Source: an uncultured Clostridia bacterium
GTDB lineage: Bacteria; Bacillota; Clostridia; TANB77; CAG-508
DNA length: 35,377 nt
Direction: 5' to 3'
Assembly (NCBI GenBank): GCA_944386375.1
Contig: CALXAW010000001.1
Span: 1 to 35,377, forward strand
This document shows, piece after piece, positions 4,211 through 34,084 of this stretch (the stretch's first letter is position 1; every line of letters begins with the position of its first letter). The notes beneath the pieces are model-generated. The model ran no database searches and was not told the DNA's origin. It worked only from the letters and a program-made list of their open reading frames with translations. The translations under genes and the position numbers were made by a program.

Positions 4211-4670
4211 CTACCAATACATTTACATTTCCTCGTTTATCTACTGGCAAATAATTATCTTCTGCAAGTATTATTCCTTTTTTATTGCTTAATACTCTAT
4301 ATTGCTCTCCGTTTTGGCTCCAGTCACTTGAACCATGCTCTATATCTGAATATTCGTTTTTAGGTGCACTTCTAAAAATACCAATAATCATAAAAATAGC
4401 ATATATAAAAGTTACTATAATTAATGTTTTAAAATATGTTGTCATTCCCCCCATAGAAATTAAGCCACTAAATGATGCTGCTGGATTTGCAATAGTTTTT
4501 CCAAAACTTGCTATAAATGTTTCCACATTAAAATTGCCTTCTGCGTTTGCCATAACAATAGCATTCGAAAAGGCTGATACTAATACTACGGCTATAAATA
4601 CCCATAGTATTGCAAATATTATAAAATTCTTTTTATTTTTTCTTAAAGCTCCCTCTACTCTGTAATTCAT
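4188..4670 (-). CDS. virD4: Type IV coupling protein, N-terminal two-TM fragment (5' fragment of the frameshifted gene).
   Basis: There are two hydrophobic helices, then ...EHGSSDWS...GNVNVLVVG, which ends exactly where the P-loop should start. RBS AGTAGGTGA lies upstream. It overlaps the 3' fragment by 23 nt. Confidence 0.8.
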   Translation of the reverse strand: MNYRVEGALRKNKKNFIIFAILWVFIAVVLVSAFSNAIVMANAEGNFNVETFIASFGKTIANPAASFSGLISMGGMTTYFKTLIIVTFIYAIFMIIGIFRSAPKNEYSDIEHGSSDWSQNGEQYRVLSNKKGIILAEDNYLPVDKRGNVNVLVVGRFRFW

Positions 4671-5645: not shown

Positions 5646-6545
5646 TTAGCTCTTTACCATCTCACGTGGATTAAATTTTGATATTTTTTTCAATTTTTCA
5701 AATAAATCTTTTTCTTTTTCTGTTAATTGTTTAGGTACCATTACTTTTACTTCTATTATAAGGTCTCCTCTTCCGCCTTTTCCATCTTTATAACCCTTTC
5801 CTGTTATTCGCAACTTTTCTCCAGATTGAATCCCTTGTGGTACGTATATTTGTGTTTCTTCGTCTATTGATTTTACACTGGTTCTTGTCCCTAATGCTGC
5901 CTCCCAAGGATTAAGTAATAAGTCTGTATATAAATCATAACCTTTTAATTTGAATTTTCCTAAATCTGTTAATTGAACTTTTATTAATAAGTCGCCATTT
6001 CTTCCGCCATTTTCCCCTGGCTTTCCTTGGCCTATTAATCTTATTTTTTCTCCATTTGCAATTCCTTCTGGCACAGTTACATTAAATGTTTTTATTTTGC
6101 CATTTGCAGTTTTTAGCGAAATTTTTTTATCTAGCCCAAAAAAGCCCTCTGCTAAAGCTACTTTTATTTCTGTTTCTACATTTTCGCCATTAACTGGTAT
6201 TTGCTTTTTAGATATATTTTCTTGTTTTGGTTCTATATTTCCAAAGAACATATAAAAAAAGTCACTAAATATTGAACCTTGCTTTCTTCCACTTTCGGTA
6301 AAAGCTTTTTTCTTTTTTAATACATGTGAGTTCCACATTCTGTCATATCTTCTTTTAGCTGACGAATTAGATAATACTCTATATGCTTCGTTTATATCTT
6401 TTATTCTTTCTTCTGCTAAATTGTCTCCTACATTTAAGTCTGGATGATATTTTTTAGCAGAAGCTCTATATGCTAGTTTTATATCTTCTAAAGACACTCT
6501 ACTTGTCTCTAATCCTAATATTTTGTAATAATCTTTAAAAATCAT
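5646..6545 (-). CDS. cbpA: CbpA-like J-domain co-chaperone (J domain plus two DnaJ C-terminal beta domains, no zinc finger).
   Basis: DYYKILGL...AYRASAKKYHPDLN (HPD motif), then GENVETEIKV...GENGGRNGDLLIKV...GKGGRGDLIIEV. No CxxCxGxG repeats. ATG at 6545 follows GGGAGGA. Confidence 0.8.
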   Translation of the reverse strand: MIFKDYYKILGLETSRVSLEDIKLAYRASAKKYHPDLNVGDNLAEERIKDINEAYRVLSNSSAKRRYDRMWNSHVLKKKKAFTESGRKQGSIFSDFFYMFFGNIEPKQENISKKQIPVNGENVETEIKVALAEGFFGLDKKISLKTANGKIKTFNVTVPEGIANGEKIRLIGQGKPGENGGRNGDLLIKVQLTDLGKFKLKGYDLYTDLLLNPWEAALGTRTSVKSIDEETQIYVPQGIQSGEKLRITGKGYKDGKGGRGDLIIEVKVMVPKQLTEKEKDLFEKLKKISKFNPREMVKS

Positions 6546-6595
6546 TTTACATCCTCCCAAAACTTGGTAGGTTGATTATATCAAAAAAATAGAAA

Positions 6596-18600: not shown

Positions 18601-19290
18601 ATGGAAAATAAAAACTATTACGAATGGTTAGAAATAAGCAAAAATGCCTCTCCAGAAGTTATAGAAAAAGCATATAAAGCACTAGTAAAAAAATATCATC
18701 CAGACTTACAAGAAGGAGAATCAAAAAAAGAGGCAGAAGAAATTATAAAACACATAAACGAAGCATACGAGGTCTTATCAGATGCAATAAAAAGAGAAGA
18801 GTATGACCACACATTGCAAGATGATACAGTATCAAAAGAGGATTATGATAAATTAAAACAAGAACTTAATAATGTAAAAAATAATCAAAATTATAATACA
18901 AATAATATATATTACGAACAAAATCAACCTACAAATAATCCTTCTCAAGAAGATTTAAATCAAATATTACAAGAAGAACAATTTCGTAGAGAACAAGAAG
19001 AACTAGAATATAGAAGACAAGTAGAAGCTGCAAAACAAAAAGCTTACCATGATGCATATATTCAAGACCTAAAAAATAGAGGATATAAAATAAAATATAA
19101 AAAAAGTTTTAAAGATTATTTAGCTGGAATAATAACAATAGCTGTAATTATACTTGTTTTTATTATATTATGGTACATTCCACCTACACACAATTGGTTT
19201 GTAAGCTTATACGAAAGTAACCCTATTATCAAAATAATAGTAGACATTTTTAGAAGCTTTATACATACAATAACAAGTATATTTGAATAA
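18601..19290 (+). CDS. Membrane-anchored J-domain protein.
   Basis: NYYEWLEI...AYKALVKKYHPDL is a J domain with an HPD motif. An N/Q/E-rich linker follows, then a C-terminal TM helix (IITIAVIILVFIILWYI). RBS AGGAGAA. Confidence 0.8.
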   Translation: MENKNYYEWLEISKNASPEVIEKAYKALVKKYHPDLQEGESKKEAEEIIKHINEAYEVLSDAIKREEYDHTLQDDTVSKEDYDKLKQELNNVKNNQNYNTNNIYYEQNQPTNNPSQEDLNQILQEEQFRREQEELEYRRQVEAAKQKAYHDAYIQDLKNRGYKIKYKKSFKDYLAGIITIAVIILVFIILWYIPPTHNWFVSLYESNPIIKIIVDIFRSFIHTITSIFE

Positions 19291-19342: not shown

Positions 19343-21010
19343 TTAGTTTATTTTGTTAAACAATTTACTTTGCCATTTTTTAATGCATCTATCTAATATA
19401 ATAAATGCTAATAAATATATTAAAAATTCTGCAACTAACGCAACCATTACATTAGTCTCTTTAAAAAAAGTAGCAATATACATTAATATTAGCACATTTA
19501 CAATCATAAAAGCATACTGAAAAAATTTATTATCACTTTTTTTAACAACTGCATATTCTGTATTCCAATCTAAATTAGGTCTGCGTAAGTCTACAATTAA
19601 CATTAAATAACTATTTATAAAATTAATTACAGTGGCTATAACAAATAGCATTAATATATACACCCAATTTATTTGTGGTAATACATACCAAATAACACCT
19701 AAAGCTACTATGGTTATACACAAATTAAGTACAATTTGTGGAAAACTTTTATACAAAAACTGTTTATACAATTCTACTGGAATATACTTAATAACTTTTG
19801 CATTTTTCCCTTCTCTAGATATTGCTGTTAATGACAAAGTAGACAAACTAAACAATACCTGTAATGCAATTAATATCGGACATGCAGACTCCATATTAAA
19901 CGAAAAGCTTTGTATTGCATTTTTTATTTCTTCATTTTCCATAATTTGAGACCACACAGGAAATATAACATAACCTATCCCTAAAAGTGTTATTAATACA
20001 ATAATTATAGGTAAACAACACTGCATAAAAAATATTGGCTCACGTATTAATAATTTTAAATCCTTTTGTATATATGCTTTAGCTATTCCACTAGACTTTT
20101 TTAATTCTTTTTCTTTTATTTTTTTAGTTTGTTTTTTAGTATAAGTAGACATACTTTTTAATACATCTTTTAAATATGTAAATTTTCCTATTAATACAAA
20201 TACAGCAAAACTTAATATATTAATTAACAATATTTTTGCAAAATTTGCTATTGTTTCTAAGCTTGCCGGGTTTGCTAAGATGTTTGCACTTGGATTTATT
20301 ATTAGCAAATAATTATTTACACTTTGCAAATTTTCACTTAAGTTAACTCCTTCTTCTAACTCTTGTATATTATAATTTTGCGGAATTACAGTCTGCAAAA
20401 ATACATATTCTAATACACAAACAATTGCAACCATAATAAATGTAACTGCAAATTGAAATAAGTTTTTATTTTTTATAAAACGTACAAACCTCATAATAAT
20501 TAATGTTAATATACTTATAAATGTTGCTATTAATATCGGAAACACTGCTAATATTAATAGCTCCCATATATAAAATAATAAATTTGCTTGTGTCATAAGT
20601 CCAAACAATGTAAATGGAACAACAGCACAAACCGCTTCTGTTGCATACATCATAGTTAATAATGTTGCTAATTTTGCTACAAGCAACTCTACTGGCTTTA
20701 TTGGCATATAAAATACCTTTTCTATATCCTTAGAAAAGAAAAATACATTTACACAAATAATTATTGTTTGAAATAACAATATTATTCCTATAACTAAAAA
20801 ATATAAATCCAAAAATACTCTTTCTTGACCAATTTCTATTAAAAACTTTATCATTTTATGGCTTAAATATGTTATAGCTATAAATAATAATAATATCATC
20901 CAAAAAAATATAGACCTTTTATTAAAACCGCTTTTTTCTTTATCAAATATAGGTAAACTCTGATAAAAGTCTTTAATAAAAACTTTAGATAAACTAATTA
21001 CTTTATTCAT
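19343..21010 (-). CDS. Large polytopic permease-like membrane protein (putative ABC-exporter-type permease). No partner ATPase is adjacent.
   Basis: About 12 or more hydrophobic helices in two halves, separated by a basic loop (TKKQTKKIKEKELKK). The start MNKVISLSK at 21010 follows GGAGAG; the ORF track extends to 21088. The family call is tentative. Confidence 0.6.
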   Translation of the reverse strand: MNKVISLSKVFIKDFYQSLPIFDKEKSGFNKRSIFFWMILLLFIAITYLSHKMIKFLIEIGQERVFLDLYFLVIGIILLFQTIIICVNVFFFSKDIEKVFYMPIKPVELLVAKLATLLTMMYATEAVCAVVPFTLFGLMTQANLLFYIWELLILAVFPILIATFISILTLIIMRFVRFIKNKNLFQFAVTFIMVAIVCVLEYVFLQTVIPQNYNIQELEEGVNLSENLQSVNNYLLIINPSANILANPASLETIANFAKILLINILSFAVFVLIGKFTYLKDVLKSMSTYTKKQTKKIKEKELKKSSGIAKAYIQKDLKLLIREPIFFMQCCLPIIIVLITLLGIGYVIFPVWSQIMENEEIKNAIQSFSFNMESACPILIALQVLFSLSTLSLTAISREGKNAKVIKYIPVELYKQFLYKSFPQIVLNLCITIVALGVIWYVLPQINWVYILMLFVIATVINFINSYLMLIVDLRRPNLDWNTEYAVVKKSDNKFFQYAFMIVNVLILMYIATFFKETNVMVALVAEFLIYLLAFIILDRCIKKWQSKLFNKIN

Positions 21011-21131
21011 TACAACTCTCCATATTATTAATATTGTATTAAATTTATGGCTAATATATATACTAGAACGGTTCTTGAATGTAACCATTTAATAATAATT
21101 ATAACATCTTATAATATATTTGGTCAATTTT

Positions 21132-21293: not shown

Positions 21294-21313
21294 AATATTA
21301 GGAGGTGCGTAAG

Positions 21314-22594
21314 ATGGCTCTAACTAAGCAAGATTATAAGCCACGATTAATAGATCAAAAAATAGAAAGATATATACAAGTATTTGGTGCTTTATGTATT
21401 GAAGGACCAAAATGGTGTGGAAAGACATGGACATCACTAAACCATTCAGAAAGTGTAACATATCTTACAGAAACAGAAATAAGAAACTTGGCAGAAGTAG
21501 ATCCAAAATACATTTTTAACAAATTAAGACCGCAACTTATAGACGAATGGCAACTAGTTCCAGAAATTTGGGATGCAGTTAGGCACGAATGTGATGAAGA
21601 TAATAAAAAAGGAAAATTTATTTTAACAGGTTCTACAACATTGAATAACGAAAGTTCTAAAAAAGTCTTTCATTCTGGTGCTGGTAGAATTGCAAGATTA
21701 AAAATGTATACCATGAGTTTATTTGAATCTGGTAATTCCACAGGAGATGTCGCAATTACAGACATGCTAAACTCCACAGTAAATTTAGGTTATATTAGAA
21801 AAGTAGAGCTTCAAGAACTAGCAGAGTATATTATTAGAGGCGGTTGGCCTGCTAATATTAACACAAACATAAATGATATAGACCTAATACCAAAAAGCTA
21901 CATAGATTCCATTTTAAATGCAGATATAAATGACGAAAACGGCAAGCAAAGAGACAAAAATAAGATGATGATGATACTTAAATCACTTGCTAGAAACGAA
22001 AGTACACTAGTAGGTGCTAAAACAATTATAAAAGATATAGAAGAATTTGAAAATAATGATGAATTAATAAAAAGTAGAACTACAATATTAGATTATATAG
22101 ATTGCTTAAACAGGTTACATTTAATCGAAAATCAAAATGCATTTAATTTAAACTATCGTTCTTCTGATAGAGTAGGAAAAGTTGCCAAAAGACATTTTAC
22201 TGACCCATCACTTGCCAGCGCATGCCTTAATTTAACTATAGAAAAACTATTATTAGACCACAATACTTTTGGATTATTATTTGAAGCTCTAGTTGAAAGA
22301 GATTTAAGAATTTATATGGATTATTTAGATGGAAATTTATATCATTTTAGAGATAATACCTCTGGTGATGAAATAGATAGTATATTAGAATTTAAAGACG
22401 GTGAATATGCTACTATAGAAATAAAATTAACTTCAAAAGGAATTGAAGATGCAAAAAAAAGCTTAACAACTTTTTATAATAAAGCAAATAAAAAGCCAAA
22501 ATTTATGTGCATTATAGTTGGACACTTTGAAGCAGTTATGCAAGACCCTGAAACAGGAATATACATAATCCCTATAACCTCTCTAAAGCCATAA
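21314..22594 (+). CDS. AAA_14 ATPase with a C-terminal DUF4143 domain.
   Basis: Walker A is GPKWCGKTWT. LIDEWQLVPEIWDAVR is Walker B-like, followed by FILTGS. The C-terminal GLLFEALVERDLRIY is typical of DUF4143. ATG 21314 lies 8 nt after AGGAGG; the ORF track start is GTG 21305. Confidence 0.85.
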   Translation: MALTKQDYKPRLIDQKIERYIQVFGALCIEGPKWCGKTWTSLNHSESVTYLTETEIRNLAEVDPKYIFNKLRPQLIDEWQLVPEIWDAVRHECDEDNKKGKFILTGSTTLNNESSKKVFHSGAGRIARLKMYTMSLFESGNSTGDVAITDMLNSTVNLGYIRKVELQELAEYIIRGGWPANINTNINDIDLIPKSYIDSILNADINDENGKQRDKNKMMMILKSLARNESTLVGAKTIIKDIEEFENNDELIKSRTTILDYIDCLNRLHLIENQNAFNLNYRSSDRVGKVAKRHFTDPSLASACLNLTIEKLLLDHNTFGLLFEALVERDLRIYMDYLDGNLYHFRDNTSGDEIDSILEFKDGEYATIEIKLTSKGIEDAKKSLTTFYNKANKKPKFMCIIVGHFEAVMQDPETGIYIIPITSLKP

Positions 22595-22724: not shown

Positions 22725-24065
22725 TTACTCAAAGCTAAATGACATTACAAAATCTGTACCCTCTTGTAGTTGCATAATTATTGTCATTGGTTTACTCTCA
22801 TTTTTATTTAATGTATTTGTTACTGTTACTTTGTATATATATGTTTCTCCCTCTTGTGAAAATTCATCATAACTAATATCATTATAACTGTATAAATTAT
22901 TTTTTATAGCATTTTCAAAATCTTGCTGTGTTTTATAATAGTTAGACTTAAACGAATCTGCTAAAAGCTTATATGCATAAGTATAGTCTTTTGTATTTAT
23001 TGCATCTATAAATAATTCAATATTCATACCCACTTTTTCTTGAGCCCCGCCTGAATTATATCTTTCTAAAAATTCTGCTTGCTGTATTGTATGTGCATCC
23101 AATAATGCCGTAAAATCCATTATACTTTTTTCATTAAATATATAATAATTGCCCTTATTGTCTATGCATATAATATTTCTTACATTATTATCATTAGCCA
23201 CTACTTGATATTTACTTAATGCTACTGAAGAAATCTCTTCTCTATTATCATTTACATACTGTGCAAATACCTCATAATTTCCAAATCGTTTTTCTTTATA
23301 TTCTGTATCTAAATATTCATATGCTAATTCAGTACGAGCTAATGTCATTCTTTTAAAGGTATTCATATATTCTCTAGCAAGATACTCATAGTTAATTTTT
23401 GCTTCTTCTATAACATTATTGTCGTTTTTTTCAATTGGATTATTATTATTAATTATTTCTATTTCATTTATGTCAGTATATTCCCTATTTATTAGTGGCT
23501 CAATAGCAAATGCTTTATTAGCTAAATCATAGTTTACCAATAAATATATATCTCTTATATAGTTATTATTAATATCTGTTAAAAATCCATATACTGCATA
23601 TTTTTCTATTTTATCTGCTCTTAATACATTCATTTTTAAAGGAACAAATATTACATCGTTATCTATTTTATCAACATAATTTCTAACATTTTCTGCGTTA
23701 ACATTGTTATTTTCTATATATTCATTACTTAATATATCACATATATATCCATTAATTTCTGCTTCACTAACAACGAGCATTCTTTCATTATTTTCATTTG
23801 TAGTATAATATCTAGAATTATTTATATTTATAATATCTAAATAACTATTAACACAATTACTTATTGTAAAAAATTTAATATTATCCACTAATTGCATTGT
23901 TGTTTCTTTTTCGTAATCTATTACTACTCCTGGGTCTCCAACCTCTGCTATATTTTCTCCATTACCATAGGAGTCTGTATTCAATTTTAATATTATTAAA
24001 ATAACTATTATAATTATTACTACTAATATACTTAATAATATTATAGCTTTTTTTAATTTTTCCAC
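22725..24065 (-). CDS. Bitopic T4SS-associated protein, a TcpC/VirB8-like candidate (TM plus NTF2-like domains).
   Basis: N-terminal TM helix (AIILLSILVVIIIIVILIIL). The C-terminal segment ELFIDAINTKDYTYAYKLLADSFKSNYY...YIYKVTVTN...IIMQLQEG has the NTF2-like cone pattern. GTG start after AGGAGG. Last gene of the operon. The fold assignment is an inference. Confidence 0.55.
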   Translation of the reverse strand: MEKLKKAIILLSILVVIIIIVILIILKLNTDSYGNGENIAEVGDPGVVIDYEKETTMQLVDNIKFFTISNCVNSYLDIININNSRYYTTNENNERMLVVSEAEINGYICDILSNEYIENNNVNAENVRNYVDKIDNDVIFVPLKMNVLRADKIEKYAVYGFLTDINNNYIRDIYLLVNYDLANKAFAIEPLINREYTDINEIEIINNNNPIEKNDNNVIEEAKINYEYLAREYMNTFKRMTLARTELAYEYLDTEYKEKRFGNYEVFAQYVNDNREEISSVALSKYQVVANDNNVRNIICIDNKGNYYIFNEKSIMDFTALLDAHTIQQAEFLERYNSGGAQEKVGMNIELFIDAINTKDYTYAYKLLADSFKSNYYKTQQDFENAIKNNLYSYNDISYDEFSQEGETYIYKVTVTNTLNKNESKPMTIIMQLQEGTDFVMSFSFE

Positions 24066-24083
24066 TTATCACATACCTCCTAT

Positions 24084-27000
24084 TTAGTTTATAAATCTAT
24101 ATACTCTAGTGAATGGATTATAATCTGATAAAGATGTTACACATATACCAGATGATGGACTAGCTGCATGTACATATTGCCCATTTCCTAAGTAAATAGC
24201 AACATGTCCAGATGACCATAGCACATCTCCAGGTTCTAGGTTATTTTCACTCAAATTTGTTGTATAATTTGAATTTCCATAATCATATGTTGTGTTTCCT
24301 GGATTAATTCCAAAAAACTGTTGATATAATCTACTTACAAAGCTTGAACAATCATAATAAAATTCTTCATATCTAAGAGCTTGGCTATATTGATATTTGT
24401 CATCATCCGCTATTCTTAATGCCTCATTTAACATTTGTATCATTCTGTTTTTATTATTTTCTGAAAGTGAAATTTCTCCAATTCTGCTGTCTGCTGATGC
24501 TCCACTTGGGGCTTCTTGGTCTTTAAACATATTATAATATTTTTGTGCTTCACTTAATCTTTCAGTCATATGGGGATCACTTGGTCTTTCAAATGTCCAA
24601 CAAAATGCAATCGTTGCTTGTTCTACTGTTGTAGCATTAAAAAAATCTGATGGTGTATATCCATTATATGATAAAAATTGATATTCTGCAAAACCATCTG
24701 CTCCTCCATATGGATTAAGCTCACCAAGTAAAAACTCTATTTGTAAATTTTCATCAGTCCAACTAGTATTTCTGCTGGCCGCAAATTCCTCTAACTTGGT
24801 TCTTCTCGGACCTGTCCATTGACATAATCCTATACCCGCACCAGAACCTATTTCTATGATAGATGGATCAAATCCACCAGATTCCCAAGCTATATTTCCA
24901 AGTACACCAGCCGCCTGTTCTTTGCTATAGCCTATATCTAATAATGCAAACCAAAGTTTTTCTTGTATACTATTTCCAACAATTCCAGAAACGTCAGAAA
25001 AATTAGCTTCTAAAAATATACTAAAATCAAAATCTGTAACACCATAATCTGTATCTGTTGCTTTATATAATAGATATTTTATTAAATCTAATATTGTACC
25101 ACTTGTTGATTCCTTATGTTCCATTATTTCAAATAACCAACTAGCTGCAGACCTTATGTTACTTCTTGTTCCCATTCTATCAGATTCATTAAATAATGTT
25201 ACAAAATTTGGTGCAGTATGTTCGTCAACTTTTTCTGTTATTATTGGCGTTCCTTTTATATATTTTCTAACTTTTATATTATTTGTTACATTATCTGTTT
25301 GTCCTACATACCTATAATAATATGTAAGGTCTATGTCTTGAGTTACTCTAGCAATAGCACTCATATCTGCTCCTTGCCCTATTCCATTTTCTCTTCTATC
25401 TTCACTCCATTTTTTCTTTACTTCTTCTTTTGCTGATTCAATTTCTTCACATGTATAGTCCTCATTTGGTCCTTGCTTTTTCTCAAGAAATTTATATTCT
25501 TGATCTTCTGGTTTTAATGTACCATTATTGTTATTTGAAGTTTCTACAGCTAAAGTATATTCTTGTCTATAATCCATCATCCACACATCTGCTCTAGTAA
25601 GAGCTATTGTAACAGTATTTGTAGTTGTAACAACTTCGTTCTGTATATAGTAATATGCAACATCATCTACTGTATCATCTGTATGCTCTACTTCACTTTC
25701 TTCTTTATTATTATTTTCGCCTTCTTCTTGTTCATTTTCAGTATTATCATTATTATCACCATTTATTATATCATCTACTTCTTCTTGAGTTGGTGGCTCT
25801 TGGTCTAAGAGATCTTCTATTGTAGTTGCTGCTATTTTTTTATTACTAACTACTTCTACTGCCGATGGTTCCAAGGATAAACTTCCTGTTTGAGTTCCAT
25901 CTGTTTCCTCGGCATTATTATTTTCCTCAGTATTTTCTCCATCTGTATTTTCTGTCTGCTCTCCGCCTCCCATAATTGGATCAGGTTCTCCCTCGTGTTC
26001 GTGTTTTTCCACTTTTACCTCAGAAGTTGTATTTCCACCAGTTGCTGTAACAGTTCCCTCTACTTCAACTTTTTCTTGATATCCATATGTCCAATTATCT
26101 ATATTAGTATTAATTGTTATATTATCAAAAATTGTTATTTCAATTGTACTATTATATGCTAAATCTGCCATATCAAATACAAAACTCTTATCCTCACCTA
26201 TTACTAGCAAAGACCATAATAAATCAAATGGCATAGTAAGGTTTTGCACATATTCTTCATAATTAACTTTAGTTATTGATATTGAAGACTTTGTTGATGT
26301 TATCGTCCCATTAACTACAGATACTTCTTCATTTGTCCCTTTTTCTGCTTCTCCATCTGCTACAACATCTATTCCCATATCCTCTGTTGCTTGTTCCCAG
26401 TTATCATCTGTCCATGTAAAACTTCCATCTACTTGTGTCCAAGTTCCAATAACTGCATAATACCCATGTGTTTTTCTCGTTGATGTTGATGTTGAGCTTC
26501 CAGAATCTCCACCTATTGCAGATATTATACTATCATACCATATTTTGTATCCCTCATCAGTCAAGTGATAACCAGTACTATCTGAATATTTAAGCCAACC
26601 ATCACTACCTTCTATGTTTGATGCAACTTCTAAAAATTCAACATTTTCTTTACCATTACAATAATTTCTTATAGTCCCATTATATGTATCTATTTTATTA
26701 TTTAACTCTGATGCAGATATATATCCTGAATAAGTACTTGCTACATGAGCCACTTCAACTACATATATTTTTTTATTTGGATATTGTTCTTTTAATTTAT
26801 CTATTAATGTTTGCATCGAAGTAGCACTATCTGGATTATTCAAACCTAAATTTAATACTATAGCACTTGCATCTGAATAATTATTAATATTTATAATGTT
26901 TCCATCATCATTTAGAAAATCATTTGCAGTTGCTCCTTGAATTCCATCAAAGTATGTTGTATCAGCTATCCCTTTGCCACTTAATCCTTGAATCCATGAG

Positions 27001-28175
27001 TCTCCTACAAAGTGTAATTTTGATGTATCTATACCACTTCCTTCAGTCCCACTTTCATTATTTTCCGCGGAGTTTTTGTCACTTTCCTCGTCTTCTTCAT
27101 TCTCTTCTTCGCCTTCTTCATAATCTCCAAAACCACCTGTTCCGCTTCCTTGTCCATTGTTATATTTAAAAGTCATTGGATCAATTGCTACTCCATTAAA
27201 TTCTATTTGAAAGTGCAAGTGATTACCTGTTGATACACCTGTACTACCAACTAATCCAATAGCTTGTCCCTTTTCTATTTCATCTCCTGCTTTAACATTA
27301 GGAGTTGTTAACATATGAAAATATTTACTTACATATCCATTTCCATGGTCTATAGTAACATAATTTCCAATTGCTGCATCGAATCCTGCAAGCTTCACTG
27401 TACCTTTCTCACATGCATATATATTTTTACCCCCAGCAGCTCCTATATCAATCCCTTCATGGTAAGAAGTTGCACCATATGCTGGTGCTGATCTATACCC
27501 AAATGGTGATGTTATGTAGACAATTTCCGGATCTACTGGCCAACACAAATTAGGTCCATTGTAATTTATTGAACCAGAAACTCCACTACTACCTTTTTGT
27601 ATCGTAAAGTGAGATAAAACTGCATCTCTGTCTGCATCACTTCCTGTCATATTATATTGTTCTACTAAATGATAAAATCTATCTGGTTCTATATATGTAA
27701 GAGTTTTTACAGTACCATCATTGTCTGCTCTTCTAAATTTAATAATTCCTAGTGGATTATCTGCATCGACTTTTTCCCATTCAATTGGCTCATCTGGATT
27801 AGGTCTCATATCTGGAAATTGCGTCACTAATTCTGCATTCATAAGTCGTGCCAATTCTTCAGGTCCATCTAAATACAAGTCTACTCTCGAACCATTTGCT
27901 ATCATTTCATCCCATATTTCTTGAGCTGTCATGTTACTTGAAATTGTTCCGTCATTACTTACAGTAATATTATTTGAATATTGATTTGATGCATAAGATG
28001 GGTTACTCCAATCATCTTCGCCTATACCATCAACCCATACAAATATATAATATGCAGCTGCTGCTAGTAATGTTGTGACAAGTGAAAAAATTAATACTAC
28101 TACTAGTAATGTCATTAAAAATGGTTTTATGAATCTTACAAAAAGATTTTTTAATACATTTTTTGCTTCTTCCAT
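24084..28175 (-). CDS. Giant membrane-anchored T4SS cell-wall hydrolase: M23 peptidase, SGNH/GDSL-like hydrolase, lysozyme-like (phage tail lysozyme type) and NlpC/P60 domains.
   Basis: M23: HEGIDIG ... GNHLHFQI. SGNH: HFVGDSW, NLGLNNP, GYHLTDEGY. Lysozyme-like: AAGVLGNIAWESGGFDP...GIGLCQWTGPRR. NlpC/P60: YYDCSSFVS, SGHVAIYLG, YVHAAS. N-terminal TM helix. The start ATG 28175 (AGGAG 7 nt upstream) is preferred over 28214. Confidence 0.85.
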   Translation of the reverse strand: MEEAKNVLKNLFVRFIKPFLMTLLVVVLIFSLVTTLLAAAAYYIFVWVDGIGEDDWSNPSYASNQYSNNITVSNDGTISSNMTAQEIWDEMIANGSRVDLYLDGPEELARLMNAELVTQFPDMRPNPDEPIEWEKVDADNPLGIIKFRRADNDGTVKTLTYIEPDRFYHLVEQYNMTGSDADRDAVLSHFTIQKGSSGVSGSINYNGPNLCWPVDPEIVYITSPFGYRSAPAYGATSYHEGIDIGAAGGKNIYACEKGTVKLAGFDAAIGNYVTIDHGNGYVSKYFHMLTTPNVKAGDEIEKGQAIGLVGSTGVSTGNHLHFQIEFNGVAIDPMTFKYNNGQGSGTGGFGDYEEGEEENEEDEESDKNSAENNESGTEGSGIDTSKLHFVGDSWIQGLSGKGIADTTYFDGIQGATANDFLNDDGNIININNYSDASAIVLNLGLNNPDSATSMQTLIDKLKEQYPNKKIYVVEVAHVASTYSGYISASELNNKIDTYNGTIRNYCNGKENVEFLEVASNIEGSDGWLKYSDSTGYHLTDEGYKIWYDSIISAIGGDSGSSTSTSTRKTHGYYAVIGTWTQVDGSFTWTDDNWEQATEDMGIDVVADGEAEKGTNEEVSVVNGTITSTKSSISITKVNYEEYVQNLTMPFDLLWSLLVIGEDKSFVFDMADLAYNSTIEITIFDNITINTNIDNWTYGYQEKVEVEGTVTATGGNTTSEVKVEKHEHEGEPDPIMGGGEQTENTDGENTEENNNAEETDGTQTGSLSLEPSAVEVVSNKKIAATTIEDLLDQEPPTQEEVDDIINGDNNDNTENEQEEGENNNKEESEVEHTDDTVDDVAYYYIQNEVVTTTNTVTIALTRADVWMMDYRQEYTLAVETSNNNNGTLKPEDQEYKFLEKKQGPNEDYTCEEIESAKEEVKKKWSEDRRENGIGQGADMSAIARVTQDIDLTYYYRYVGQTDNVTNNIKVRKYIKGTPIITEKVDEHTAPNFVTLFNESDRMGTRSNIRSAASWLFEIMEHKESTSGTILDLIKYLLYKATDTDYGVTDFDFSIFLEANFSDVSGIVGNSIQEKLWFALLDIGYSKEQAAGVLGNIAWESGGFDPSIIEIGSGAGIGLCQWTGPRRTKLEEFAASRNTSWTDENLQIEFLLGELNPYGGADGFAEYQFLSYNGYTPSDFFNATTVEQATIAFCWTFERPSDPHMTERLSEAQKYYNMFKDQEAPSGASADSRIGEISLSENNKNRMIQMLNEALRIADDDKYQYSQALRYEEFYYDCSSFVSRLYQQFFGINPGNTTYDYGNSNYTTNLSENNLEPGDVLWSSGHVAIYLGNGQYVHAASPSSGICVTSLSDYNPFTRVYRFIN

Positions 28176-28206
28176 ATTTTTACTCCTATTCTTGCTAAAA
28201 TCTTTT

Positions 28207-29172
28207 TTACACATCCACTCTAAATTCTAATCTATTTTCATAATTTAGTGTATTGTTAAACTCTTGATATGCATTTGCATCTAATATTATGTCTGAAAAT
28301 ACTATTTGTTTTATTTCTCTATCATATACATATCCAGCATAAAATTTTATTGATATATCATTTGTATGTCCTACCTGTACTGTAAGCATAGGTACTGTTA
28401 ATTCTTGAGTATATGCAGAACTTGTTGAACCATTACTATCTTCTATATATAATGATTTTATTTCTTCTCTGCTATCTAACAATATTGTATTTTCTGTATT
28501 GTTTGTTACTTTTAATCTATATTCTACATAGTCTGAATATTGATTTGCATATAACACTTCTGCTTTTATATTATCATTTTCTGTTATTCTATTTATCTGT
28601 TTACGTCCTATAAAATTGTTTATATTTAATTTATATGTATCGTCTTGTTCTACTATTGTTATATAATCTTGTATAGCAGAACCCTCATTTGATTTTCCTG
28701 TTGAAAGTAAATCTTCTACCATTCGTACTTTATATGTACTTCCTGTCCAATTTTCTACTGTACAATTCTTTTTTTGGCCATTAAAGTTATTATTATAATA
28801 TATATTTCTAAAAATATCTATATTTTCGAACATTTCTTCTTTACATTCATTTGTAAGCATATTATAAGCATTTTCTATATCTCCATTATTGCAATATGTT
28901 AAAAAGTCGTCTATTAATGTTGTTTCTCTTTGTAATTTTTCTTGGCTTATGCTTTGCCCTGTAACTACAGACCTATTTGTAGTAACTGTAGAAGAATTTG
29001 TTTGTATTTTAGGCTCTTGTGTAATATTATTTGCATTTGCTATTTCTTCCTCTGTACCTCTTTTTACAAAGAAGTTTATAACTTGTATTACTAAAATAGC
29101 AGAGGCAATAATTATTACAATTCCCCATATTTTTTTCCTGTTTTGATTATAATATCGTATAAAACTGTTCAT
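28207..29172 (-). CDS. Bitopic T4SS-associated protein, a VirB8/TraM-like candidate (TM, NTF2-like domain, Ig-like beta domain).
   Basis: TM helix IWGIVIIIASAILVIQVINFF. IDDFLTYCNNGDIENAYNMLTNECKEEMF is NTF2-like. The C-terminal part YVEYRLKVTNNTENTILL... is a beta-sandwich-like pattern. RBS GGAGG. Confidence 0.55.
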   Translation of the reverse strand: MNSFIRYYNQNRKKIWGIVIIIASAILVIQVINFFVKRGTEEEIANANNITQEPKIQTNSSTVTTNRSVVTGQSISQEKLQRETTLIDDFLTYCNNGDIENAYNMLTNECKEEMFENIDIFRNIYYNNNFNGQKKNCTVENWTGSTYKVRMVEDLLSTGKSNEGSAIQDYITIVEQDDTYKLNINNFIGRKQINRITENDNIKAEVLYANQYSDYVEYRLKVTNNTENTILLDSREEIKSLYIEDSNGSTSSAYTQELTVPMLTVQVGHTNDISIKFYAGYVYDREIKQIVFSDIILDANAYQEFNNTLNYENRLEFRVDV

Positions 29173-29193: not shown

Positions 29194-32106
29194 TTATTTT
29201 TTATTTGGTAATCTTAAATTAGTTCTGGCTTGTCCAATATTTTTACCAGCTTTTGCATCTAGGTATGCTTGTGATGCAGTCATTACAAATTTAGTTTGTC
29301 TTTTAGCTCGTTCTTCGTCTCCACCATATGCCTTCATAAATTTTTCATTTAATGTATCTGATATTTCTGTTCTATTTTTCTTAGTCATTGTTTGTGGATT
29401 TTTTCCACCCATTAATGATTCAGTTGTATCCATAATTGCTGTTGCATCCTCTACATTTCCTGCGTATCCTTTTTCTATTAAATTATGTCCTGCTATAATA
29501 TCATCTGCACTTGTTCTACCATTTCTTATAAATTGTTCTACTGTTTTATTGTCATATAATTCTTTAGTTTTAGTTGCTCCTATTTTATTGGCTATTTCTG
29601 CTTTTAAGTCATCATCTTTTAATTTTTCTTTTACTGCCTTTTCTTGCATTGCTTCTGGTGAATCGTAATATCTGCTATCATATGCGTCTTTTACATCTTG
29701 GCTTATATAGTCAGATGGTTTAAAACTACTACTTGCTACACTTTTTCCTGCTGCATATCCTGCTGTAGCTCCAATACCTGCTGCTGCCCATACTTTGCTT
29801 GGATCACCTGCTGCAATGGCAGCGGCTGTACCTAATCCCATTACAGCTGCTCCTGCTGGAATACCTACCATTGCTCCTGCTGCAGCTTTTCCTATAGCTT
29901 TTGGGCCTTTCTCTTTTGCTACTGCTCCTACTGCGCCCATTGCTGACTTAAATCTCTTCTTAGCATTTTCTCCTCTTGATGTAGGTCTTGCTATTTTTTT
30001 CTTTTCACCCTCATTAGCTCTATTTGCTACTGGTATACCAGCTATATTAGCACTACTTGTTCCTGCATTTTCTCCTTTTAATTTTTCTGGCTCTGATTGC
30101 ATTGTATCTTCCATTGCTGCTTGTTGCTCTGCATTTGCCATACGAATTTGGTCTGCTTCTAATGCTGCTTGAGCTTGTTGAGCCGCTATAATTTTTGCTT
30201 TTTCTTCAGCATTCTTTCTTTTTTGTTCTTCAATATAATTTCTGCTGTCCTCATCTTGCTTACCTGACAATCCATTATTATATTCATCTTCCATCTCTTT
30301 TATTGTCTTTCCCTCGTCCTCTAAGAATTTTAGCCTATCTGATTGTTCTTTTTTACTCATAGTTTGTTCACTTGGTAATGATGCTAATACTGAGTCTTTA
30401 TCGAAATTATGTGTTCTTGTAGATAGTAATGCTCCTGAAGAACTACCACTTTTACTTCCTCCTGAATTACTTGCAGAGGGATGCCCCTTAAATCCTTTAC
30501 CTAGCATACTAGAAACTTTATTTACAGCTCCAAACATTACTGCTGTTCCAGCAGGACCTGCAAGTAATGGTGCTGTATCTGCTTTTTGGAATCCAAATAA
30601 GCTACGTAATAATTTTTCTGCAGGTAGCATAAATCCAATTGCTACTAAACTATATACTACATTTTCTCCTGCCAACTCGAAAGCTGATGTTACTAATATA
30701 AAATATAGCAATAAATGCATTGGTTGTATAAGCAAATTAAATATGTATTCTTTAAGCCATTTATCAAACCCTTGAGCAGATCCATCACTTACTTTATCTA
30801 TACAATATGTTAATGCTACTAATGGTGCAATTATTGTTAAAAATGCCATATATAATAACCTTTTTAAATATGTAAATGTAAACATTAATGTAAATATTAC
30901 TAATATTAGGAAACATATTGCTAAACCTATATATTGCGAACCAGATGTATTAAATTGTAATGCTAGTCTTAAGTATCCCATTAAATTTGTAGTCCATACA
31001 TAATATTCTTGTCCATTTTCATCAACAACGTGATAATCATCTTCAGAAAGTGTTGTTTCTGCTAAAAACTCTCCTAATTTATCCATCTTTTCTTTATTAT
31101 CATCATCAACCTTCATTACATATTGATATACATTTTTGTCAACTGATGTTGCAACAATATCTGTTAATTTTTGTACCATAGTAACAGAAAATGCCATTAT
31201 ATAATGCATTAAAAATAATAAACAGAGCCCCACAAACCAATCTTTAAGCATTGTTAAATATTTAGCCTTATCACTTGCTACACTTGATAACAACATTCTT
31301 ATACCAATATACACTAATACAGAAAGCATTGCTACCAAGCAAATATTTCTAATTGTACTATACCATGAACTAATTGTGGATTGTAACATTTGTGCTGAGT
31401 CTTGTTTTGAAGTTATTACTGTTTCCCCATCTTCAGTTGTATAATAATAATAATCAACTACTTGTTCTCCTGTATTATTTCCATCTTCATCAGTTATATT
31501 CGATCTATGCTCATTTATATATATAGGTTCACCAAAAAAGTCAACATTAAATAATAATATATTTCCCTTAAATATTTCTTCTGGACTATATGAATAAGTT
31601 GGTAGATATAAATCTCCAGGTGTTGCACTTCCTTGACTCATCATTGCAGCTACTGAATTTGTAATAGCACTAGATGCTGCACTTGGTATTGTAACAAAAA
31701 GAAGTGAACCTGTAGTAACTGATGCAACAGTTGTTACTGCTGCTGCTGCTGCAACTGCTAACCAACCACCAGTAAGAAACAATCCTATTCCAACTGCTGC
31801 TGCTATTATAGCTCCAATAATAAATTGAAATACATCCCACCATGCGGAATTTAAGTCTGCATGCATCAGTGAACCGTCTATTCCCATTATAGCACTGTGT
31901 AATATACTCATTATTCCATCGCCAATTGTTACCAATAGTGACATTACCGGACTTAGTAGCTTGCCACCCCATTCAATTGCTAAACTTCCATCGTCGTCAT
32001 CTGCTGCCATTATTGGGTTTGCTGCTATAAATTGGAATAATAATACAATTAATAGTATAACTGCAATTTTTTGCCATATTTTCTTGTTAGTAAAAATCTT
32101 ACTCAT
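29194..32106 (-). CDS. virB6: VirB6/TrbL-like polytopic T4SS channel protein with signal peptide and a roughly 465-aa C-terminal extension.
   Basis: Signal-like N-terminus (…FQFIAANPIMAADDDD). At least 6 TM helices interspersed with a large loop. The size and position next to VirB4 match Tn916 Orf15, TcpH and ConG analogues. RBS AGGGGGA. Confidence 0.65.
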   Translation of the reverse strand: MSKIFTNKKIWQKIAVILLIVLLFQFIAANPIMAADDDDGSLAIEWGGKLLSPVMSLLVTIGDGIMSILHSAIMGIDGSLMHADLNSAWWDVFQFIIGAIIAAAVGIGLFLTGGWLAVAAAAAVTTVASVTTGSLLFVTIPSAASSAITNSVAAMMSQGSATPGDLYLPTYSYSPEEIFKGNILLFNVDFFGEPIYINEHRSNITDEDGNNTGEQVVDYYYYTTEDGETVITSKQDSAQMLQSTISSWYSTIRNICLVAMLSVLVYIGIRMLLSSVASDKAKYLTMLKDWFVGLCLLFLMHYIMAFSVTMVQKLTDIVATSVDKNVYQYVMKVDDDNKEKMDKLGEFLAETTLSEDDYHVVDENGQEYYVWTTNLMGYLRLALQFNTSGSQYIGLAICFLILVIFTLMFTFTYLKRLLYMAFLTIIAPLVALTYCIDKVSDGSAQGFDKWLKEYIFNLLIQPMHLLLYFILVTSAFELAGENVVYSLVAIGFMLPAEKLLRSLFGFQKADTAPLLAGPAGTAVMFGAVNKVSSMLGKGFKGHPSASNSGGSKSGSSSGALLSTRTHNFDKDSVLASLPSEQTMSKKEQSDRLKFLEDEGKTIKEMEDEYNNGLSGKQDEDSRNYIEEQKRKNAEEKAKIIAAQQAQAALEADQIRMANAEQQAAMEDTMQSEPEKLKGENAGTSSANIAGIPVANRANEGEKKKIARPTSRGENAKKRFKSAMGAVGAVAKEKGPKAIGKAAAGAMVGIPAGAAVMGLGTAAAIAAGDPSKVWAAAGIGATAGYAAGKSVASSSFKPSDYISQDVKDAYDSRYYDSPEAMQEKAVKEKLKDDDLKAEIANKIGATKTKELYDNKTVEQFIRNGRTSADDIIAGHNLIEKGYAGNVEDATAIMDTTESLMGGKNPQTMTKKNRTEISDTLNEKFMKAYGGDEERAKRQTKFVMTASQAYLDAKAGKNIGQARTNLRLPNKK

Positions 32107-32125: not shown

Positions 32126-34084
32126 TTAGTTCTTTCTCATTTTTGCTAATTGGTTTAAGTTTGTTTCTACAAACTCAAATTCTTTTTTCGTTGGCATAAT
32201 TTTCAAAATAGCAGTATCTGCTCCTACTTTTAGTAATCCCTCTCCTCTTTGACAGGTTACTAAAAAGTTTGCTTCTCCGTCTGAAAGTTTAAATACTTCC
32301 TTTAAATACTGTATTTCTGATTTATCTTGCGCTAAAAATAGTTTTGTGTCTGAAGATGTTAGTACTGCTTGTGCTTCTGGTTTTTCGTAAAAGTCTTGGA
32401 ACCTTTGCGAAATTATAGCAAGTGATACATTTCTTTTTCTTGCACGTCTTGCCATTTTGTTTAAAAAGTCTACGGCTTCTGGGTATGGAAGTAACATCCA
32501 TGCCTCATCAACTAACACTCTTTTTTTACTTGCTTTTGTTTTGTCTTCACTATTTTTCTTAACAAATTTTTCCCATATCCAAGAAAGCAATATTTGTTGT
32601 GCAAGTGGTCTTGCAAATCTTTCTTCTAGTTGAGAAATATCTAAGTTTATAAATGGTGCTCCATCTAAAAGTTCAAATGTAGATTGTCCATCAAAATATG
32701 CCATTTGCCCATCATATTCTCTTATGTATTGCTTCATAACTTTTAGCAAATAACTATAATGGAATTTATAGTCTTGGTTGTCATTTTCTTGTGCTTTTGC
32801 TTTTATTCTTCTGTACCAACTTCCTATTGTTGGCATTTTCTTTTTTTGTTTTGCAAGCATATTTCCTCTTGCAACACCTCTAGCATCTTGTTGATATAAA
32901 CTATTTGGGTCACTGGTTATACCAAGTGATGCATATTCTTCTGCTACTGCTTCTGCTATTATTTGTTTTGTAAGCTCATTTACCTCTACACTTCTTGTAC
33001 TACCTTTTGCCATTGTAAGTAACCCTTGTGTTACGTCTTCTACTTTATTTTCTATGTTTAACACTGTTCTGTCTTTTCCTGTTATTTCGTCTTTTATTGT
33101 TTCTGTTTCAACATCAAATATATTTATTACTGTTTTTGATGTTGGGCTTATTACTACATTTATTCCTCCAAGGCTTTCTGCAACTATTGTATACTCACCT
33201 TCTGCATCTAGTGCCAAACTTTCTATTCCCATTAGCACTGATGACCTAGATACTAAAGTTTTCATTGTAACAGATTTACCTGCACCAGATTTAGCAAATA
33301 TAACCATATTATAGTTTGTAAGTGAACTATGAAAATTGTCAAATAATATTGGTGTTCCTGTTTGCTTATTAAAACCTAGGGGTACGCCTGTTGGGTGCCC
33401 TATTTCTGATGTTGTAAACGGAAATACTGTTCCCATTGAGTTTCTGTCAAATGTATGTGTTTTCTTTAATTGGTCATCCATTAGTGGTAAATTAGATTGA
33501 AATGCTTCTTCTTGCAATCCCCATGCTGTTTTTATTCCTACTAATGTTTTTGACATTTCTGTTGCTAATAGTTTTGTGTATCTATCTAAATCTTCTAAAC
33601 TATATGTAAATAATGTTGCTACAACAGATGCTTCATATAGTTTATTAAATCCTGCTGCTATTTCGTCTCTTAGTCTTTCTGCTTCTAGTCTTTTTTGTGT
33701 TATAGTACTTTCTCTGTTTATATTACCTTTGTCCATTGCCACGATTCTTTCTGTTTCTAGCTCATTTATTACTCTATTCAATTCATTTTGTGACCTATCC
33801 TCTTTTATTGGATTTATATATACAGATGCATTTAAATCTCCAAAAAGGTACATATCTCTAAACAATTCTGGGAAAGTACACATTCTAGGAAGAGTTGATA
33901 CAAAAAAACTTCTTGCATATCTTTTAGTATTAGATATTATTTCTAAGTGATCTATATTAGAAGCGTCTATTCCAGATGGTGCAATTAAATCTTTTATTGT
34001 TTGCCCTTTTAGAAAATTTGTGTATTCTTCTTCGTTATGCTGTTGTTTTTCTTCTTCTAGTTGTTGTTTTTTGTTTTTCTTCAT
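32126..34084 (-). CDS. virB4: VirB4-family T4SS ATPase (TraE/PrgJ/TrsE type).
   Basis: Walker A FAKSGAGKSVTMK. Also LDAEGEY. Walker B KRVLVDEAWMLL. Also RARKRNVSLAIISQRFQDF. The N-terminal domain LIAPSGID...YARSFFVSTLP...ASVYINP is typical of Gram-positive VirB4. RBS GGAGGAG. Confidence 0.9.
   Translation of the reverse strand: MKKNKKQQLEEEKQQHNEEEYTNFLKGQTIKDLIAPSGIDASNIDHLEIISNTKRYARSFFVSTLPRMCTFPELFRDMYLFGDLNASVYINPIKEDRSQNELNRVINELETERIVAMDKGNINRESTITQKRLEAERLRDEIAAGFNKLYEASVVATLFTYSLEDLDRYTKLLATEMSKTLVGIKTAWGLQEEAFQSNLPLMDDQLKKTHTFDRNSMGTVFPFTTSEIGHPTGVPLGFNKQTGTPILFDNFHSSLTNYNMVIFAKSGAGKSVTMKTLVSRSSVLMGIESLALDAEGEYTIVAESLGGINVVISPTSKTVINIFDVETETIKDEITGKDRTVLNIENKVEDVTQGLLTMAKGSTRSVEVNELTKQIIAEAVAEEYASLGITSDPNSLYQQDARGVARGNMLAKQKKKMPTIGSWYRRIKAKAQENDNQDYKFHYSYLLKVMKQYIREYDGQMAYFDGQSTFELLDGAPFINLDISQLEERFARPLAQQILLSWIWEKFVKKNSEDKTKASKKRVLVDEAWMLLPYPEAVDFLNKMARRARKRNVSLAIISQRFQDFYEKPEAQAVLTSSDTKLFLAQDKSEIQYLKEVFKLSDGEANFLVTCQRGEGLLKVGADTAILKIMPTKKEFEFVETNLNQLAKMRKN

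Follow-up and report, generated by a model that had tools for sequence, protein, structure and literature searches.

The DNA analysed here (hereafter the window: positions 1–35,377 of contig CALXAW010000001.1, GenBank assembly GCA_944386375.1) comes from an uncultured Clostridia bacterium and encodes a very large predicted cell wall hydrolase next to genes of a type IV secretion system (T4SS). How Gram-positive T4SSs cross a wall of 30–100 nm is still unsettled (PMC12857230), and the locus raises the question of what a single protein with four wall-degrading modules does beside such a machine. The evidence presented below indicates that the hydrolase is probably the cell wall-breaching subunit of a monoderm T4SS, i.e. 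a functional counterpart of VirB1, PrgK, CwlT, and Orf14. It belongs to a family in which catalytic modules have been swapped and reordered around a conserved scaffold.

Gene structure and the four enzyme modules

The open reading frame (ORF) list and its translation give the hydrolase as a single uninterrupted frame (24084..28214, reverse strand; 1376 aa). The in-frame ATG at 28214 yields the full 1376 aa, and the ATG at 28175 defines a coding sequence of 24084..28175 (reverse strand) and 1363 aa. The latter start, which had been chosen in the initial annotation, is backed both by an AGGAG sequence located 7–8 nt 5′ of it and by a database copy of the identical protein (P0002, 1363 aa) that begins at this codon; the residue numbers in that annotation were counted from ATG 28214, as are all hydrolase residue numbers in this text. 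P0003 (1383 aa), from an independent assembly, shares 81% identity and the same architecture with the hydrolase, and P0004, from an independent metagenome assembly, shares 66% identity, the architecture of the two being the same as or nearly the same as that of the hydrolase. Because independent assemblies encode this architecture, the long ORF is real, and an assembly chimera is ruled out.

The initial annotation had proposed four catalytic domains in one polypeptide and had named profile searches as the test of its SGNH and lysozyme-like assignments. All four domains, including these two, score above the curated cut-offs of Pfam and lie within the nucleotide ranges proposed for them. The first (the strand of all features within the gene is that of the gene, i.e. 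reverse) is a Peptidase_M23 domain of the LytM-type zinc endopeptidases (residues 251–346; 27177..27464; E = 4e-29, 101 bits versus a cut-off of 28.7), in which the metal-binding and catalytic residues are all in place, namely H252 and D256 (HxxxD), H300, and H332 and H334 (HxH). This module matches PDB 6jmx in a PDB sequence search (E = 3e-21), and a Foldseek search with the structural model of residues 40–1235 (see the next but one subsection) returned M23 matches only, among them LytM, lysostaphin, and ShyA. An acidic low-complexity linker (27054..27164; 16 D/E versus 1 K/R in residues 351–397; predicted local distance difference test score [pLDDT] <50) connects this module to an SGNH/GDSL esterase module (residues 388–558; 26541..27053; Pfam Lipase_GDSL_2, E = 5e-13, 50.3 bits versus a cut-off of 32.9). 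The conserved blocks of the esterase contain S406 (GDS), G457 and N459 (LGLN), and H550, and the Ser, Asn, and His residues are invariant across 11 aligned family members. When the profile of this module was compared with PDB, the nearest solved relatives were a PAF-acetylhydrolase-like protein (2hsj, 3e-14) and a sialate O-acetylesterase (6njc, 1.6e-11), i.e. by sequence kinship, acetyl-specific esterases. In the same search, the SGNH domains of PatB and OatA were matched with E values of about 2e-3 only, and no Ape1 chain was among the matches. No homologue of the SGNH module was found in plasmid T4SS hydrolases; the only matches were weak ones to Agrobacterium GDSL genes.

The remaining two modules are located at the C-terminal end. 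A Phage_lysozyme2 domain, i.e. a lysozyme-like domain of the phi29 gp13 type (residues 1084–1230; 24525..24965; E = 8e-35, 120.5 bits versus a cut-off of 28.2), spans positions 3–140 of the 140 profile positions and carries its Glu as E1112 in WESGG (family consensus, MGNIxxESGF); it matches phi29 morphogenesis protein 1 (PDB 3csr/3csq) with an E value of about 3e-5. The last module is an NLPC_P60 cysteine peptidase (residues 1286–1363; 24126..24359; E = 2.5e-12, 47.1 bits versus a cut-off of 23) with its triad of C1289, H1337, and H1349 in place, and it matches MepS/Spr (5e-11 to 1e-10) and CwlO (3e-5) in PDB. At the opposite end of the protein, a short basic cytoplasmic head precedes an N-terminal transmembrane anchor (residues 33–61; 28032..28118), which comprises the hydrophobic stretch LMTLLVVVLIFSLVTTLLAAAAYYIFVWV and was modelled as one long helix, giving the protein a predicted type II topology.

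The T4SS gene cluster

The hydrolase gene is part of a run of six genes, all on the reverse strand and separated by gaps of 18–31 nt or overlapping, in the order o415, VirB4, VirB6-like, o321, hydrolase, and o446. The VirB4-like ATPase gene (32126..34084) encodes P-loop_TraG and AAA_10 domains and has a match to conju_CD1110 (E = 1.5e-60) that lies below the cut-off of this model. The VirB6-like gene (29194..32106) encodes a polytopic protein of 970 aa with weak matches to T4SS_pilin and to the conjugal-transfer protein model MMCAP2_0566 from Mycoplasma integrative and conjugative elements (ICEs). The other neighbours are conserved proteins without recognizable relatives: o321 (28207..29172), immediately upstream, has no Pfam, NCBIfam, or PDB match; o446 (22725..24065), immediately downstream, has no family or PDB match; and o415 likewise has no family match. 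No VirB8-like (NTF2) neighbour was recognized by sequence among the cluster genes.

The assignment of the protein as a T4SS hydrolase is thereby upheld: it is a membrane-anchored protein in a monoderm T4SS cluster with VirB4 and VirB6-like genes. The features expected of Gram-positive VirB1-like proteins, namely the position in a T4SS cluster, a predicted N-terminal anchor with extracellular enzyme domains, and the combination of a glycosidase with a peptidase, are all found in it. A membrane anchor and extracellular enzyme domains are common to all Gram-positive VirB1 homologues known so far (PMC12857230).

In a scan of one genome per species, 163 relatives were detected and 79 loci were kept for comparison. 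These loci derive from uncultured Clostridia (including Clostridium sp. CAG:273) of human, mouse, rabbit, chicken, and goat gut, and the six-gene order is kept in most of them. The VirB6-like gene is syntenic in 67 of the 79 loci, o321 lies beside the hydrolase gene in 76, and o446 is present in 78. The best tblastn segment of VirB4 is 81–93% identical in the 63 loci where one was found, and the hydrolase is 30–57% identical. This conservation of VirB4 is unusually strong for a T4SS ATPase compared between species, other cluster genes being 30–65% identical (loci L010–L087). Rearranged clusters were also observed: in three loci (L031, L055, and L083), the hydrolase gene and o446 are located ahead of o415, VirB4, and the VirB6-like gene, and in three others (L038, L058, and L061), o446 is placed before o321.

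The conserved scaffold

The initial annotation had listed the four catalytic domains and a core region of unknown character. These five parts were all found, and a second conserved non-catalytic domain (residues about 62–214; 27573..28031) had been overlooked between the membrane anchor and the M23 module. This N-terminal ectodomain (hereafter N-domain) has no Pfam match, and its profile found nothing significant in PDB, the best candidate, DrrA, being rejected at E = 0.023. A search confined to this region gave 52 matches, all of which are members of the same hydrolase family.

Structures were predicted with AlphaFold2 for residues 40–1235 (from an alignment of 104 sequences) and, in a second prediction, for the core alone. 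The mean pLDDT was 78.8 for the former, with values >90 in the N-domain, and 78.3 for the latter, in which 287 of 508 residues scored ≥90. The core is predicted to consist of strands of 16, 15, 37, 13, 24, and 28 residues with alternately hydrophobic and polar side chains, three short helices around an MPFD motif, and a C-terminal helical bundle. Part A of the core (residues 585–741; 25992..26462; pLDDT 90–97) contains beta strands including the 37-residue strand and the three short helices (MPFDxLW); it is covered in up to 97% of the relatives, and F663, W667, F678, L685, S689, and D697 are invariant. Part B (residues 853–1075; 24990..25658; pLDDT mostly >90) contains the strands of 24 and 28 residues, the helical bundle, and the motifs EPNFVT, WLFEI, and KYLLYKAT, and it is covered in 87–97% of the relatives. 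The two parts are split by a variable acidic insert at the tip of a long beta hairpin (residues 744–849; 25668..25985), which contains 33 D/E and 3 K/R in 106 residues, is predicted with a pLDDT <50, and is covered in only 6% of the relatives; in the core model, this disordered segment falls between the strand of residues 729–741 and the 24-residue strand of residues 853–876.

The core had been described as a beta-rich region of unknown nature without recognizable motifs. The predicted fold of long beta strands and a helical bundle, which has no significant match in PDB or BFVD, agrees with the first part of this description. The second part does not hold, as no part of the family is better conserved than the core (88–97% of the relatives), which contains motifs such as MPFDxLW, TKANVW, EPNFVT, and KYLLYKAT. 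No Pfam model matched residues about 580–1080 above its cut-off. The only match, to the BspA_v adhesin domain, was rejected (22.6 bits against a cut-off of 25), and the Foldseek search against PDB returned no antigen I/II V-domain. No significant Foldseek neighbour of the core was found in PDB (best match: E = 4.6e-3, probability 0.15, TM-score 0.11). The top matches were the secretins PilQ, InvG, and GspD (E = 4.6e-3 or worse, probability ≤0.15), with TM-scores of about 0.1 and a root-mean-square deviation >30 Å, and the likeness is taken to lie in the long-hairpin character only and not to reflect homology. A Foldseek search of BFVD gave no significant match to the core, and tblastn searches of 72,556 plasmids and 50,697 phage records gave none; a phage origin of the scaffold was rejected on the BFVD and phage-record results. 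The initial annotation had considered that the same architecture might already be common in annotated conjugative elements; this was not observed, the scaffold being absent from all of the plasmid and phage records searched.

A profile of core part B retrieved 830 representatives at E ≤1e-3 and 559 at E ≤1e-10 from among 1.84 billion, so that the scaffold family is real but of modest size. As far as can be judged from these comparisons, the N-domain and the split core together make up the fixed scaffold that defines the hydrolase family.

Module shuffling in the hydrolase family

When the whole protein was used as the query, 295 relatives were obtained, nearly all of which are unnamed proteins of 850–1800 aa from gut metagenomes. 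The BLAST coverage of 120 relatives was mapped onto the hydrolase, and domain combinations (Pfam) were counted in 119 cluster representatives. Coverage was 91–94% at residues about 50–200 (N-domain), 97% at residues about 650–700, and 87–97% at residues about 875–1075, compared with about 67% for the M23 module, 35% for the SGNH module, 70–80% for the lysozyme-like module, and 30% for the NlpC/P60 module. Because the non-catalytic parts are more widely common to the relatives than the catalytic modules, the core is the signature of the family.

The 119 representatives display 25 domain combinations. Phage_lysozyme2 is the most frequent module (97 representatives), followed by M23 (75), GDSL_2 (39), NlpC/P60 (35), and VanY (21); glucosaminidase (6), CHAP (5), and C39_2 (5) are rarer, and GDSL (PF00657), Phage_lysozyme, Hydrolase_2, and C70 were each found once. 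Eleven representatives have at least four domains. The exact four-domain set of the hydrolase is found in three of them (P0003, P0015, and P0026) and, with an extra GDSL match, in P0006. There is one slot for modules on each side of the core, and the order of the modules differs between members: P0026 has the order N-domain, SGNH, M23, and core, whereas the hydrolase has the order N-domain, M23, SGNH, and core. Catalytic modules are thus swapped and reordered around a conserved scaffold. In one relative (the 37th sequence of alignment A1), an insertion of about 230 residues with an LFLGNS motif is present in a loop of the N-domain; this could be a third module insertion site.

The SGNH module had been presented as not known from T4SS hydrolases. 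The literature agrees with this: the hydrolase domains of Gram-positive VirB1-like proteins listed in a 2025 review are CHAP, SLT, MUR, and LytM only, SGNH not being listed (PMC12857230), and a full-text literature search found no paper tying SGNH to T4SS hydrolases. Within its own family, however, the module is recurrent (39 of the 119 representatives). A glycan-cleaving module accompanies it in 37 of these 39 proteins, none of which carries a glucosaminidase. The SGNH domain was found inside a large ORF in 3 of 41 sampled genomes of the source genus, too few for a correlation of SGNH with OatA.

Chromosomal setting of the cluster

The source genome (1.31 Mb, 146 contigs) is 93.6% complete, and the cluster resides in a conserved chromosomal neighbourhood of small genomes (1.1–2.0 Mb). 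The scaffold was detected in 24 of the 33 genomes sampled from the same genus and in 38 of the 77 sampled from the family, whereas the other families of the order gave a single positive genome among 123 sampled. No integrase and no phage genes were found in the window. The cluster looks chromosomal and largely vertically inherited, and not like a typical ICE or other conjugative element. A type IV coupling protein (T4CP) gene of the CD1115 family (2459–4210, reverse strand; 425 bits versus a cut-off of 250) lies 20 kb away from the cluster on this contig, with an ORF directly upstream of it (4188–4670, reverse strand), and the T4CP gene and the cluster are separated by housekeeping genes of wall synthesis (ddl, murF, dacA, and an LCP gene), comEA, and others. 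None of the 79 related loci yielded a T4CP gene less than 10 kb from the cluster.

In these loci, the genes that follow the cluster include those for a 581-aa permease-like protein (53 loci), a DnaJ-domain membrane protein (42 loci), and a CbpA-like DnaJ protein (30 loci), which are located at 19343–21088 (reverse strand), 18601–19290 (forward strand), and 5646–6560 (reverse strand), respectively, in the window. This recurrence reflects either a conserved chromosomal neighbourhood or membership of the three genes in the system. The permease-like gene usually follows o446 directly in the 53 loci. In the window, the two are separated by a gene for an AAA_14/DUF4143 ATPase (21305–22594, forward strand), which was found in none of the related loci and looks like an insertion specific to the source genome. 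At least six further ORFs with M23 domains are encoded elsewhere in the source genome, namely three in a row at 11610–14519 of contig C17 and others on contigs C9, C12, and C32.

Comparison with known systems

PrgK of the Enterococcus faecalis plasmid pCF10 (DELTA class) is also an anchored multi-domain extracellular hydrolase encoded in a T4SS cluster and likewise combines a LytM-type domain with a glycan-cleaving domain and a cysteine peptidase (PMC11323569, PMC12857230). It has three domains (LytM, SLT, and CHAP) with a degenerate LytM site, whereas the present hydrolase has four modules and has kept its M23 ligands. PrgK also lacks the SGNH module, the conserved N-terminal domain, and the beta-rich scaffold of about 500 aa. 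Moreover, the glycosidase of the hydrolase is of the gp13/Phage_lysozyme2 type and not SLT, its cysteine peptidase is NlpC/P60 and not CHAP, and its gene lies in a chromosomal cluster for which no relaxase was found. PrgK chains were not among the PDB sequence matches of the hydrolase.

CwlT of ICEBs1 and Orf14 of Tn916 (BETA class) resemble the hydrolase in their short or absent cytoplasmic part and N-terminal anchor, and in both of these elements, as in the present cluster, the gene is preceded by those for VirB4 and the VirB6-like protein. CwlT consists of a muramidase followed by an NlpC/P60 DL-endopeptidase, which is also the module order in the last 300 residues of the hydrolase. The hydrolase is, however, four times longer, its C-terminal part being preceded by the M23 module, the SGNH module, and the scaffold. 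The PDB matches of the C-terminal 297 aa (E ≤1) included no chain labelled CwlT, the homology established being that of the shared Pfam families only.

A chromosomal T4SS of the monoderm type in which virB4 is closely followed by peptidase and lysozyme genes has been described in the Saccharibacteria member Candidatus Southlakia epibionticum ML1 (PMC12102498, PMC10633639). The two organisms belong to different phyla, and Southlakia has no recognizable T4CP, unlike the source genome. The phi29 gp13 protein and phage tail lysins resemble the hydrolase in that a lysozyme-like domain of the same family and an M23 domain are combined in one chain (PDB 3csq and 9m7n). In gp13, which is a part of the phage tail, the lysozyme domain precedes M23, and the transmembrane anchor, SGNH, NlpC/P60, and scaffold are all lacking. 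With Ape1 and NanS/EstA, the SGNH module shares the fold with its Ser, Gly, Asn, and His blocks, these proteins being acetyl-specific sugar esterases. Ape1 is described as removing the 6-O-acetyl group from MurNAc and thereby licensing glycan cleavage (bioRxiv 10.1101/2021.09.23.461501). The module differs from all of them in lacking an Asp three residues before the His, in being fused into a T4SS hydrolase, and in having no cognate O-acetyltransferase that could be found. Neither kinship with Ape1 nor a cognate PatA/PatB or OatA, the marks of Ape-type peptidoglycan O-acetylesterases, was detected.

In summary, the features that set the hydrolase apart from the known VirB1/PrgK/CwlT type are the four catalytic modules, the SGNH esterase, the two conserved non-catalytic domains without known relatives, and the chromosomal cluster, for which no relaxase of the three families searched was found.

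Proposed role and alternative explanations

As the wall-breaching subunit of the T4SS, the protein would be anchored by its short cytoplasmic head and single transmembrane helix beside the VirB6-like/VirB4 translocon, the remainder being predicted to be extracellular. The most likely task of the scaffold is to attach the enzyme to the machine and to extend the modules into the thick wall, where, by analogy with PrgK, CwlT, and TraG, a local hole would be opened by glycan and peptide cuts for assembly or passage. The M23 module may act as a cross-link or stem-peptide endopeptidase and the NlpC/P60 module as a stem-peptide endopeptidase, and the gp13-type lysozyme-like module presumably cuts glycan strands. 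O-acetylation of MurNAc is described as blocking lysozymes, with de-O-acetylation coming before glycan cleavage (PMC6174289; bioRxiv 10.1101/2021.09.23.461501). The SGNH module would most plausibly strip O-acetyl (or similar) esters off wall glycans and so enable the lysozyme-like module to act, a step for which the chances seem to fall slightly short of even.

Several observations weigh against this reading or against parts of it. The T4CP gene is 20 kb away behind housekeeping genes, and no relaxase of the Rep_trans, PF03432, or MobA_MobL families was found in the source genome, other MOB families lying outside this search. Because of the distance of the T4CP gene and the lack of a relaxase of these three families, the machine may not be conjugative. 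The docking or spacer role of the scaffold is purely inferred. Intact motifs do not prove four activities, because only one of the three predicted hydrolase domains of PrgK is active, the others being regulatory (PMC11323569). As for the esterase, the catalytic triad (DxxH) lacks its Asp at the canonical site, three residues ahead of the His, where Thr547 (TGYH) is found in the hydrolase and T, S, D, A, E, or M in the members of the 11-sequence alignment. An Asp is located five residues before the His in the hydrolase and many relatives, and from its sequence the module would act with a Ser-His dyad or with another acid. The enrichment of glycosidases with SGNH is small (95% of SGNH-bearing versus 85% of SGNH-less members) among family members that are not independent of one another, and it lends weak support. 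Finally, no Acyl_transf_3 (OatA-type), MBOAT (PatA-type), or other SGNH gene was found in the source genome. As no Acyl_transf_3 or MBOAT gene was found, the esterase has no evident O-acetylated substrate in the wall of its own cell. De-O-acetylation of peptidoglycan or teichoic acid had been suggested in the initial annotation; for the peptidoglycan of the producing cell, support is lacking, both on this account and on account of the Asp missing from its canonical site. With no such acetyltransferase found, the ester groups may instead be carried by a different wall polymer or by a partner cell's wall.

The best-placed of the alternatives is an attack on other cells. The cluster may encode a relaxase-less, chromosomal, T4SS-like machine for epibiotic, predatory, or antagonistic contact, as has been proposed for Saccharibacteria, and the hydrolase would then be an attack enzyme that cuts the wall of a partner. 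In this case, module shuffling and the SGNH module would represent an adaptation to diverse, often O-acetylated foreign walls. The lack of relaxases of the three families searched, the conserved position of the cluster in small genomes, the esterase without an evident substrate in its own wall, and the very diverse module content of orthologous, syntenic genes are all in keeping with such a function. There is also a precedent, in that the Southlakia T4SS, which lacks a recognizable T4CP or relaxase, is essential for epibiotic growth (PMC10633639), and the peptidase and lysozyme genes downstream of virB4 are essential as well (PMC12102498). However, the hydrolase is anchored in the membrane of its producer and must first reach across the producer's own wall, a T4CP is present in the genome, and no immunity-like gene was identified. 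We consider this explanation, which is compatible with a wall-breaching role in the T4SS, to be unlikely.

It is somewhat less likely still that only one or two of the modules are catalytic and that the others regulate or target the enzyme, the SGNH domain being a binding or inactive module. PrgK provides the model for such an arrangement, as its LytM domain is degenerate, its CHAP domain shows no activity in vitro, and the muramidase is down-regulated by the two of them (PMC11323569); the missing canonical Asp of the SGNH module points in the same direction. Unlike in the LytM domain of PrgK, however, the HxxxD and HxH ligands of the M23 module are intact, the Ser, Asn, and His of the SGNH module are invariant in the 11 aligned members, and the Cys-His-His triad of NlpC/P60 and the Glu of the lysozyme-like module are in place.

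A further, quite improbable proposal assigns a more active part to the scaffold. The N-domain and the core, with its amphipathic strands of 24 to 37 residues and acidic tip loop, may oligomerize into a wall-spanning conduit or spike of a relaxase-less, chromosomally fixed T4SS, and its swappable modules would be directed against a partner cell's wall. It is highly implausible that the protein is a general autolysin or a remnant of a prophage tail lysin that just happens to lie beside the T4SS genes: although Phage_lysozyme2 and M23 form the phi29 gp13 combination, Gp16 (PDB 9m7n) matches both modules, and several further M23 genes exist in the genome, most of the 79 loci, which come from different species, retain the gene together with those for VirB4 and the VirB6-like protein, the window is free of phage genes, and the scaffold is unmatched in the phage records and BFVD.

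Significance of the hydrolase family

The few T4SS hydrolases that have been studied have two or three domains. The family described here is built differently, with a fixed scaffold and two slots that have received, by exchange, at least twelve different enzyme modules defined by Pfam, including an acetyl-esterase that is not listed for T4SS hydrolases. It thus offers a natural set of module combinations for asking which wall bonds need to be cut. The scaffold is a candidate wall-spanning or docking element and merits a family model of its own, its members being currently labelled as hypothetical or named after one peptidase domain. If it does form a conduit, it would be a candidate for the missing cell wall channel of monoderm T4SSs, and a contact-dependent lifestyle would be suggested for the clade. 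These uncultured gut Clostridia are abundant, and the cluster is a further hint that their chromosomal T4SS may serve a purpose different from conjugation in the classical sense.

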